A stretch of 46,457 nt of DNA from Candidatus Nomurabacteria bacterium (GTDB lineage: Bacteria; Patescibacteriota; Minisyncoccia; Phycocordibacterales; SBAW01): contig CALQYT010000004.1 in assembly GCA_943348815.1 (NCBI GenBank), positions 11,617 through 58,073 on the forward strand, written 5' to 3'. Below are positions 1-17,553 of this stretch, one piece after another (positions within the stretch are counted from its first letter, which is position 1; each line of letters opens with the position of its first letter). A program made the position numbers and the translations under genes. The notes under the pieces were generated by a model, which searched no databases, was not told the origin of the DNA, and saw only the letters and a program-made list of their open reading frames with translations.

Positions 1-41
1 CCCGACTCAAGGCAAAACACCCGATTTTGCAAAGAGTCGGG
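1..41. repeat. CCCGAC...GTCGGG palindromic hairpin (REP-like / possible terminator), at window edge
   Basis: cccgactc (1-8) pairs with gagtcggg, with an inner gcaaaa/ttttgc stem and a T-rich tract after it; the same CCCGAC/GTCGGG core occurs twice at 16943-16980. Confidence 0.55.
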
Positions 42-45
42 CGTT

Positions 46-73
46 TTGATTTTTCTAAAAAATAAACTACAGT
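46..73 (+). promoter_or_regulatory. Putative sigma70 promoter of the structured RNA
   Basis: TTGATT (46-51) - 16 nt - TACAGT (68-73); followed by boxA-like GTTTTTTGA (89-97), identical to the 9-mer in the 16S leader. Confidence 0.45.
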
Positions 74-95
74 TGAGTTAGGTTCTTCGTTTTTT

Positions 96-380
96 GAATG
101 CCCGGTGGCTCTGAGCGCATGGAGGTGAAAAGCGTTGGCGATTAAGCCGCTGACGCTGAAAGGGGACCTTCGGTCCACTTTGCACCAATATGGCAGACTC
201 CGGCATCTTGCGGTGACAGCTTCGATCACGGGTTTCATTCCCGGGTCTCACCGTTCGTAGGAGGGTCCGTCAAGGATCGCACGGCCTTAGGCCCTGGTCT
301 GGTGGCGGTGAGGGGGAGGGACGAGAGTTCCTCGTTTAGAATCCCAAACACGGTGGGTATACATTCCTGCCACCCTCCAC
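96..380 (+). ncRNA. Unassigned highly structured RNA (~285 nt) with a tRNA-like 3' domain
   Basis: Nested helices visible by eye: 131-140/148-157, cUUCGg hairpin 159-181, 211-216/248-253, 260-266/372-378 enclosing four hairpins. G-U pairs favour the + strand. Bounded by a promoter and a terminator; no convincing long ORF. Confidence 0.65.
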
Positions 381-387
381 GATTTTG

Positions 388-410
388 GCTCCACCTTGGT
401 GGAGCTTTTT
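388..410 (+). terminator. Intrinsic terminator
   Basis: gctccacc-tt-ggtggagc followed by TTTTT. Confidence 0.75.
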
Positions 411-8282: not shown

Positions 8283-9251
8283 ATGACTGTGCTCGTCACA
8301 GGCGGCGCGGGCTTCATCGGAGCTCACGTCGTCAAAAAGCTACTCGCCAAAAAAGAAAAAGTGGTGGTGGTCGATGATCTCTCTAGCGGGTGGGCGGGTC
8401 GCATGCCTATCAACATCCCTTTCGAGATAGGCGATATTGCCGATACGGCTTTCTTACGGTCGGTCTTTCGACGGTACTCTATCTCGGCAGTGGTTCATCT
8501 CGCGGGTTCAATCTTGGTCGGAGACTCGATCAAGTATCCGTTGTTGTATCATCGGAACAATGTCGTCGCTTCGCACACGCTACTTACGGTGATGCTTGAG
8601 TTTGGAGTGAGGACGATCGTCTTCTCTTCTTCCGCGGCGGTGTATGGTGACCCAAGCCAGACACCGGTAACCGAAGAGGCCGACTTAAGGCCGGTCAATC
8701 CGTATGGGTGGAACAAGCTCACCACGGAAATGATGCTTCGGGACTATGCCAAGGCCTATGGGTTGCGATACGTGGCTTTGCGGTATTTCAATGCCGCTGG
8801 GCCTGGTTATCGGCGGAGGCCAGCTTCGCATCTTATCCCGCGGGCGGTGCACGCGGTGCTTGGGATCGAGCCATACTTTAGGCTCAATGGTGCGGACTAT
8901 CCAACTAGGGATGGCACCTGTGACCGCGACTACGTCCATGTGGAAGACCTCGCCGACGCACACTATGTGGCGTGGTGGTATCTGCTCAATGGGGGGACTA
9001 GCCTCGCGCTCAATTGCGGAGGAGGTAAACCCTATTCCAACTTGGAGGTGCTCCAAAAAATTAGGAGCATTTCCGGCGTTGACTTTCCGATCGAAATCGG
9101 TCCGCGCCGGCAAGGGGATCCAGCCAGCCTGGTTGCCCATATTGGGTTGATCCGCGAAACCTTAGGTTGGGTACCCAAACTTGGTCTTGAGACTATGATC
9201 GGAAACGAGCTCGAGTTCGCTCGCATGTACCTCAGTAAACCCACCGCTTAG
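8283..9251 (+). CDS. galE: UDP-glucose 4-epimerase
   Basis: VTGGAGFIG, FSSSAAVYG, NPYGWNK, LRYFNAAG, DYPTRDGTCDRDYVHVEDLA, RRQGDPASL. Confidence 0.9.
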   Translation: MTVLVTGGAGFIGAHVVKKLLAKKEKVVVVDDLSSGWAGRMPINIPFEIGDIADTAFLRSVFRRYSISAVVHLAGSILVGDSIKYPLLYHRNNVVASHTLLTVMLEFGVRTIVFSSSAAVYGDPSQTPVTEEADLRPVNPYGWNKLTTEMMLRDYAKAYGLRYVALRYFNAAGPGYRRRPASHLIPRAVHAVLGIEPYFRLNGADYPTRDGTCDRDYVHVEDLADAHYVAWWYLLNGGTSLALNCGGGKPYSNLEVLQKIRSISGVDFPIEIGPRRQGDPASLVAHIGLIRETLGWVPKLGLETMIGNELEFARMYLSKPTA

Positions 9252-15219: not shown

Positions 15220-16683
<1,464 letters not shown>

Positions 16684-17451: not shown

Positions 17452-17553
17452 AGTCAGCCCACAGGAGCTCCTCGGACAGAAATTCAATACGTTTCAGCGC
17501 CCCGGCTTCTCACACACGAGCCGGGGCGTCTGCTATGTAAAACTCTAATTTAG

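Follow-up and report, generated by a model that had tools for sequence, protein, structure and literature searches.

This locus raises the question of what a strongly folding, apparently non-coding segment without a match to any known RNA family might be. The stretch of DNA analysed, referred to below as the window, comprises 46,457 nucleotides (nt) of Candidatus Nomurabacteria bacterium (GCA_943348815.1, CALQYT010000004.1:11,617-58,073; genome G000 and contig C4 in our numbering), and the segment lies close to its beginning, downstream of ribosomal RNA (rRNA) genes and upstream of a small gene for a protein of 116 amino acids (aa), orf116. The initial annotation had regarded the segment as a stable RNA of an unrecognised class, with its own promoter, a boxA-like antitermination site, a terminator and a 3' end resembling that of a transfer RNA (tRNA). 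The analysis leads us to favour, tentatively and short of calling it probable, a strain-specific accessory non-coding RNA gene located at about 80-410 on the + strand and ending at 387-414, with read-through past its end probably giving expression of orf116. The element is non-coding, single-copy and bounded by terminators, it has an exceptional fold that is specific to one strand, and it is an orphan residing in a hot spot.

The + strand of positions 85-410 folds at -135.9 kcal/mol (z -2.77), with none of 100 dinucleotide shuffles being as stable, and the - strand has a z of -1.26, with 10 of 100 shuffles as stable. The core of the element (96-381) reaches -120.3 kcal/mol, a value equalled by 12 of 600 GC-matched 286-nt segments of the same genome, and its energy per nt is -0.421 kcal/mol at a GC fraction of 0.591, against -0.417 at 0.588 for the genome's own RNase P RNA. 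The predicted ensemble is sharp, showing a diversity of 0.091 per nt and a mean pair probability of 0.895 in the minimum free energy (MFE) structure, for which the background values are 0.230 and 0.672. Diversity as low was observed in 4 of 250 GC-matched segments and pair probability as high in 5 of 250, and energy and diversity were jointly matched in 1 of 250. The same two measures are 0.082 and 0.91 for the genome's own transfer-messenger RNA (tmRNA) and 0.208 and 0.77 for its RNase P RNA; as predicted, the fold of the element equals the former in sharpness and exceeds the latter. The reverse complement is diffuse (diversity 0.33, pair probability 0.53), 16 of the 108 pairs are G-U pairs and thus strand-specific, and the difference in energy between the strands amounts to -27.5 kcal/mol, which 22 of 350 background segments match. 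We conclude from these models that the structure is a real property of the sequence, specific to the + strand. The segment is also distinct in composition, with a GC fraction of 0.58-0.61 in 96-382, 0.33-0.38 in the flanks and 0.518 in the genome, and the open reading frames (ORFs) listed for 96-382 are short and overlapping on both strands (38-79 aa only), none of them convincing.

In the MFE structure of the + strand and its pair probabilities (P), the predicted fold comprises three domains:

98-206, + strand: domain i, a long stem with interruptions that opens into a three-way junction, with GGUG/CACC as the closing pairs (P 0.61-0.99)
131-157 and 159-181, + strand: hairpins of domain i in the MFE structure, the first of 10 base pairs (bp), the second with the triloop GGACC-UUC-GGUCC
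210-254, + strand: domain ii, a bulged hairpin of 7+4+4 bp with the loop UUUCAUU (P 0.97-1.00)
255-382, + strand: domain iii, a four-way junction with an 11-bp closing stem (255-266/372-382) containing one bulged A
267-308, 312-345 and 352-371, + strand: the hairpins of domain iii in the MFE structure, forming three arms of 42, 34 and 20 nt

Much of the architecture drawn in the initial annotation was recovered in this model, including the domain i junction GGUG124-127/CACC183-186 (P 0.99), the 10-bp hairpin 131-140/148-157 (P 0.99), the hairpin at 159-181, with pairs 164-168/172-176 (P 0.99), and the domain ii hairpin, with pairs 210-216/248-254 (P 0.97). The resemblances to known motifs fared worse. 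The cUUCGg tetraloop attributed to the second hairpin is replaced by a UUC triloop when GGACC and GGUCC are paired, and the UUCG register leaves a C-U mismatch. In domain iii, the 7-bp stem GGAGGGU260-266/ACCCUCC372-378 was retained (P 0.98), but it is prolonged by UCGU255-258/ACGA379-382 (P 0.94), and the supposedly unpaired discriminator A and free 3' end are thereby paired. The four-arm cloverleaf proposed for this domain likewise gives way to three hairpins in a four-way junction.

Comparison with Rfam supported the earlier view that the element belongs to no recognised class. No family was detected within 97-451, either at the gathering score or at an expectation value (E) of 10 or below, and the four weak matches obtained in 1-520 at E<=10 all map to flanking terminator or AT-rich parts (9-96, 452-505). 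The exclusion of RNase P RNA and tmRNA, previously argued from missing motifs, was upheld: the sole match to RNase P RNA in the genome is at C14:8292-8616 (105.6 bits), with none in 1-520, and the genome has its own tmRNA at C1:195902-196311 (92.8 bits). The element has no match to the tmRNA model, none of the eight matches listed for that model lies in the region of the window, and ARAGORN likewise reports no tmRNA there.

The element might still represent a new class of stable RNA that is antiterminated through boxA and carries a tRNA-like 3' domain released by RNase P, as originally put forward. It is located downstream of the 23S-5S operon, a position of interest given that tRNA genes distal to rRNA operons are common in bacteria, and the genome encodes an RNase P RNA. 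As in tRNA and tmRNA (RF00005, RF00023), a GC-rich helix of 7 bp closes a four-way junction in the 3' domain, and six of the seven pairs of this helix recur in the acceptor stem of the genome's own tRNA-Ser(UGA). Unlike these RNAs, however, the domain yields no tRNA or tmRNA match in 1-520, either with Infernal models at E<=10 or with ARAGORN, which reports only the tRNAs at 17553 and 19274 in the window. The junction has no linker nucleotides, its arms have the lengths listed above, the would-be discriminator is paired by the closing stem, and the signatures of D-loop and T-loop are missing, the loop of the proposed T arm (UAUACAUU) lacking the pattern expected of a T-loop. Global alignment to tRNA-Ser gave a z of 2.3; the best local match, to the T arm of tRNA-His, was reached by 11 of 400 background segments, and the two-anchor similarity to any of the 46 tRNAs of the genome was matched by 48 of 300. 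A derivation from tRNA was hence rejected, its similarity not being above background, and the lack of a tRNA signal in the four-way junction removes the basis for the suggested processing by RNase P.

The antitermination signal fared no better. The 9-mer GTTTTTTGA, which is found at 89-97 and again in the 16S leader (15080-88) and had been read as boxA, is T-rich and non-specific, with four copies in the window against 0.86 expected. The copy in the 16S leader is the T-tail behind a GC hairpin and overlaps a TTGACA, the remaining two copies lie in unrelated contexts, and the 17-mer at 81-97 has no copy with three or fewer mismatches in 291 kilobases (kb) of the relatives' loci. As far as the shared 9-mer shows, the site is not a boxA. 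Furthermore, a terminator stands between the rRNA operon and the element. The first base of the window directly follows a 100-N scaffold gap (G000:C4:11517-11616) flanked on either side by an identical 76 nt (locus L010, 1265-1517), which indicates that the gap is an unmerged overlap and that the window is contiguous with the genes upstream. These are the genes for 23S rRNA, which contains a group I intron, and for 5S rRNA, together with a hydrophobic ORF of 39 codons, the unit of which ends at the terminator at window positions 20-41. An antiterminated RNA with a tRNA-like end is hence the least probable of the explanations considered here.

Another candidate is a universal RNA too divergent for detection by Rfam, namely the RNA of the signal recognition particle (SRP) or 6S RNA, the families of which (RF00169 and RF01854 at E<=10; RF00013) have no match in the whole genome. 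An SRP RNA would here be without a partner, since Ffh and FtsY were not found in the genome either, as judged from the Ffh M domain, the SRP54-type GTPase and the TIGR families for ffh and ftsY; with no model match, SRP RNA was rejected. The fold, predicted to form three separate domains with unpaired ends, differs from both the rod of 6S RNA and helix 8 of SRP RNA, and 6S RNA was rejected on this ground and for want of a genome match. A universal RNA would also be expected to be conserved in the genus, yet the element was detected in none of 40 genus genomes, whereas RNase P RNA was recovered from 35 of these. The segment might alternatively be a gene for a short peptide, encoded by the following ORF:

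135-260, + strand: 41-codon ORF with a TTG start and GGAGGTG 7 nt upstream

The spacing of the GGAGGTG motif 5' of the TTG start argues for translation, but both this Shine-Dalgarno-like motif and the start codon are predicted to be buried in helices (pairing of 118-140), the start lying within the 10-bp helix, and the ORF is on this account probably not coding. Conservation of the ORF as a protein, an outcome that the initial annotation had envisaged as contradicting an RNA, was not observed, as the 41-aa peptide has no homolog among 5.8 billion protein clusters (proteins of 22-72 aa searched). A hidden universal RNA or a peptide gene is thus very unlikely.

The boundaries of the element are defined by two terminators and a promoter-like pair:

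20-41 (feature 20-52), + strand: upstream terminator, a 9-bp stem with a T-run, from the terminator scan and the upstream context
46-73, + strand: weak promoter-like pair TTGATT(46-51)-16 nt-TACAGT(68-73), 8/12, recognised by eye below the scan threshold
387-406 (feature 387-414), + strand: downstream terminator, an 8-bp stem GGCUCCAC/GUGGAGCU, then UUUUUGUU (P 0.98)

The terminator scan identified four terminator-like hairpins with T-runs in 1-1200, compared to a shuffle mean of 1.5, and substantiated the intrinsic terminator at the 3' end of the RNA, at 387-406, in which eight pairs, five of them GC, are followed by TTTTTGTT. The promoter claimed for the RNA was not substantiated in the same way, as the consensus scan of 1-1200 returned no site; clear promoters elsewhere in the genome have the form TTGACA-17-TAnAnT. 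Acting as a weak promoter of the sigma-70 type, TTGATT-16-TACAGT would start the RNA near position 80 and yield a transcript of about 330 nt. Both transcription and this start site are what we infer from the sequence. Such a transcript would fold co-transcriptionally, its three domains being autonomous (a bulged hairpin between a three-way and a four-way junction), and termination at 387-414 would release a discrete, nuclease-resistant RNA. The fraction of transcripts reading through the terminator would probably supply the mRNA of orf116, because no separate consensus promoter precedes that gene. In this way, RNA and protein would belong to a single cassette that yields much RNA relative to protein.

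The gene in question is the first of three that follow the element:

495-845, + strand: orf116, an orphan 116-aa gene of low GC

It is separated from the terminator at 387-406 by an 85-nt AT-rich gap and is followed by a conserved 252-aa gene (orf252, 871-1629) and a gene of the FtsW/RodA family. The product of orf116 belongs to no Pfam, PADLOC or PHROG family (best PHROG E 0.23), has no homolog in 60 genus genomes and retrieves only itself among the 5.8 billion protein clusters. Its AlphaFold model, with a predicted local distance difference test (pLDDT) score of 47.6, is uninformative and too poor for a fold search. Both orf116 and the RNA are absent from all relatives and hence travel together, and they probably constitute one accessory unit.

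This arrangement also admits a different interpretation, in which the element is a cis-acting 5' leader of orf116, similar to an attenuator or riboswitch, with a ligand, a protein or the ribosome deciding the fate of the terminator at 387-406 and the discrete RNA being a by-product. The element lies immediately 5' of orf116 on the same strand with a terminator in between, and the consensus scan revealed no promoter-like site between 410 and 495. The order of a long structured 5' region, a terminator and a gene is that of attenuating leaders and riboswitches such as the T-box (RF00230) and the cobalamin riboswitch (RF00174), which are of comparable size. The sequence CUCCAC occurs at both 375-380 and 389-394, so that GUGGAG at 399-404 has two candidate partners, but the alternative pairing still places a hairpin before the same U-tract and provides no on/off logic, and hence no convincing switch between terminator and antiterminator. 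The three domains are predicted to be independent (P>0.9) with no competing conformer, and no riboswitch, T-box or leader family was matched at E<=10. Unlike in the known leaders, the downstream gene is an orphan. We know of no precedent for a 290-nt aptamer serving an orphan 116-aa protein, and a leader of this kind offers no possibility of cross-genome comparison. On balance, we regard a cis-acting leader as unlikely.

The genomic setting of the accessory RNA gene favoured here was outlined by comparison with relatives. The gene orf252 is present in 38 of 40 genus genomes (47-67% identity) and is closely preceded by a 5S rRNA gene in 19 of the 20 loci inspected. Across 19 relatives, the spacer between the two genes ranges from 32 to 1058 nt, its cargo is unrelated among loci L017-L045, and some spacers contain a terminator alone. 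This variation in length and content indicates that the element is located in a recombination or cargo hot spot. Its limits within the spacer can be approximated as follows:

78-85, no strand: left edge of the strain-specific segment, where a variant diverges after 77 and TAGGTTC occurs at 79-85
843-849, no strand: possible right edge, a second TAGGTTC overlapping the stop codon of orf116

The presence of TAGGTTC at both edges and the divergence of the variant at 77 suggest that a single insertion spans about 78-850; a 7-mer repeated at edges as loosely defined as these has, as a rough estimate, a few percent probability of arising by chance. The cassette (about 78-870) would thereby fill a hypervariable slot, flanked by the 5S rRNA gene on one side and the conserved orf252-ftsW pair on the other, in which relatives carry other cargo.

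The contents of this slot in the relatives are diverse. Small membrane ORFs are found in the spacers of L017, L028, L031 and L032, and a gene for a 317-aa membrane protein in that of L038. Cytidine-deaminase-like genes (PF00383) were detected in L020 (28.5 bits) and, below the cut-off, in L036 (20.7 bits), with similar ORFs in L026 and L044. The spacers of L017 and L023 contain a partial second copy of the 5S rRNA gene (its 3' half) 3' of the real one, and share 87 nt at 79% identity. In the genome studied here, the 39-codon hydrophobic ORF (L010 1143-1260) lies directly 3' of the 5S rRNA gene behind a promoter of the form TTGACA-17-TACAAT, and relatives likewise encode small membrane peptides right after the 5S rRNA gene.

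The reality of the element as DNA is supported by environmental data. The stretch occurs in three DNA runs of a single lake-water study, and independent contigs from two runs cover 48-844 with no differences; the element is thus real DNA. Alongside it occurs a variant that has bases 1-77 in common with it and a different sequence thereafter (run X1, loose end at 77); in the orf252 part downstream, its identity is 88-93%. Word depth is about 11-13 in 1-57 and 5.2 over the element.

Several results weigh against an accessory RNA gene, most of them concerning conservation. BLAST searches with 60-420 returned no homolog in 60 relatives, the only match being a 26-nt terminator fragment in G013. A covariance model (R1), derived from this one sequence with its predicted fold and run with default filters, found nothing in 40 genus, 150 order and 150 phylum genomes, in 29 syntenic loci or in 19 metagenome loci, if one fragment in G023 at E=0.448 is disregarded. 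Loci L065-L087 were left out of this search; the best orf252 identity there is 67%, the same as in G016, which was searched. Of the two findings that the initial annotation would jointly have taken as refuting its RNA, a lack of homologs and a lack of transcription, these outcomes supply the first. Phage and plasmid collections gave no match either, and two exact motifs had no match in viral contigs. The negatives are meaningful, for the method has power: an equivalent 286-nt single-sequence model of RNase P RNA recovers 35 of the 40 genus genomes (E<=1e-20). With no homolog found, support from covariation is lacking, and the population supplies none, as the contigs contain no variant inside 48-844. 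On the side of expression, the stretch occurs in no RNA run, and the scan of 1-1200 produced no consensus promoter for the RNA. Finally, stability alone places the core only in the top 2%, and the asymmetry between strands only in the top 6%, which by itself is not exceptional.

These observations bring to the fore the possibility that the element is a functionless, decaying remnant of foreign or duplicated DNA in the hot spot, its fold being an accident from the tail of the distribution in G-rich sequence. The element shows no conservation, and in relatives debris accumulates in the slot, including the half-copies of 5S rRNA in L017 and L023, which makes this a serious rival. Such a remnant would be an orphan in every search even where a control RNA turns up in 35 of 40 genomes, would need no consensus promoter, would number among the 2% of GC-matched segments that are equally stable, and could differ between co-occurring strains. 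Yet a sequence in decay is hard to reconcile with the combination of stability and ensemble sharpness met in 1 of 250 segments and equal to that of tmRNA, or with a clean terminator exactly at the 3' end. The element has no paralog in its own genome (blastn, nhmmer), and no similarity was detected to the genome's rRNA, tRNA, RNase P RNA or tmRNA or to the rest of the genome. Since it also resembles no Rfam family, no parent sequence can be named for a remnant. Although this explanation deserves attention, we consider it rather unlikely.

Among known systems, the putative accessory RNA gene most closely recalls the small RNAs (sRNAs) of strain-specific islands. It shares with them an intergenic, ORF-free and GC-enriched sequence that folds strongly and ends at a Rho-independent terminator, and it is likewise confined to one strain or species and placed beside an orphan gene in a variable locus. 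It differs from them in its size of about 300 nt and its three multi-helix domains, being far larger than typical base-pairing sRNAs, in having no nameable seed-like single-stranded region, chaperone or target, and in that its expression is predicted. The RNA may act in trans, may bind the product of orf116, or may do no more than gate that gene in cis. In its boldest form, RNA and orf116 would make up a new RNA-protein accessory module, for instance an addiction or defence cassette in which the abundant RNA neutralises or guides the protein, exchanged between strains at a hot spot distal to the rRNA operon; we consider this improbable. Also comparable are the type III toxin-antitoxin systems (toxI RNA-terminator-toxN), with which the locus has in common the order of an RNA, a terminator and a small gene on the same strand, and an accessory, strain-variable location. 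Type III antitoxin RNAs, however, consist of tandem repeats, of which there are none within 96-382, and orf116 has no PADLOC match to a defence or toxin family, for which reasons a type III antitoxin RNA was rejected. The sole tandem repeat in 40-500 is a 9-nt AT-rich one at 467-487, outside the RNA.

The element is therefore not tRNA-like, not controlled by boxA and not a missing universal RNA. If transcribed, it would be a large and elaborate RNA confined to one strain or species of a bacterium with an ultra-small genome, which would suggest that genomes can acquire structured RNAs as accessory cargo, much as they acquire orphan genes. A literature search (supplements aside) retrieved no description of a comparable RNA. 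Two side findings, the apparent lack of an SRP pathway and the cargo slot behind the 5S rRNA gene, look more valuable than the RNA element itself.

The SRP pathway appears to be absent from this genome, which is 96.7% complete. Neither the Ffh M domain (PF02978) nor, over the cut-off, the SRP54-type GTPase (PF00448) or the ffh and ftsY families (TIGR00959, TIGR00064) were found in it, and none of its six-frame ORFs combines the G1 and G3 GTPase boxes. SecY and YidC were found normally, and no large part of the assembly is masked. In addition, RF00169 was detected in none of 41 other genomes and PF00448 in none of 41 order genomes, and a search for SRP GTPases across the phylum gave one weak partial match in 101 genomes, with controls positive in 13-14 of 14; these negatives outside the genome studied here may partly reflect the first-look filter of the search. 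A literature search, again with supplements aside, found no paper stating the loss of SRP in this phylum.

Other features of the rRNA loci and stable RNAs of this genome were noted in passing. The 16S gene (window 15220-16683) shares a strand with the 23S-5S genes (C4:6812-11204) but is unlinked from them, at a distance of about 15 kb downstream, and is preceded by its own promoter (TTGACA-17-TATACT). Both the 16S and the 23S leader include a hairpin with a U-run that resembles a terminator. Another G-rich stretch bounded by terminators, with spurious-looking ORFs only (G000:C4:6225-6410, locus L088), separates a small ORF from the 23S promoter, and the 15-nt identity between window 207-221 and C4:6331-6345 is at chance level (10 of 3540 segments). 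In the closest relative, a 145-nt match to the tRNA model (L017 2732-2876, - strand; 44.1 bits, model positions 1-71) lies between the 23S and 5S genes and suggests a tRNA carrying a large insertion or an intron within the rRNA operon. Lastly, a perfect 27-nt hairpin has exactly three copies in the genome, all identical, of which two are in the RNase P RNA (C14:8571-8597 and 8376-8402) and one is in the group I intron of the 23S gene (C4:10571-10597); this hairpin could be a module of stable RNAs that is mobile or binds protein.

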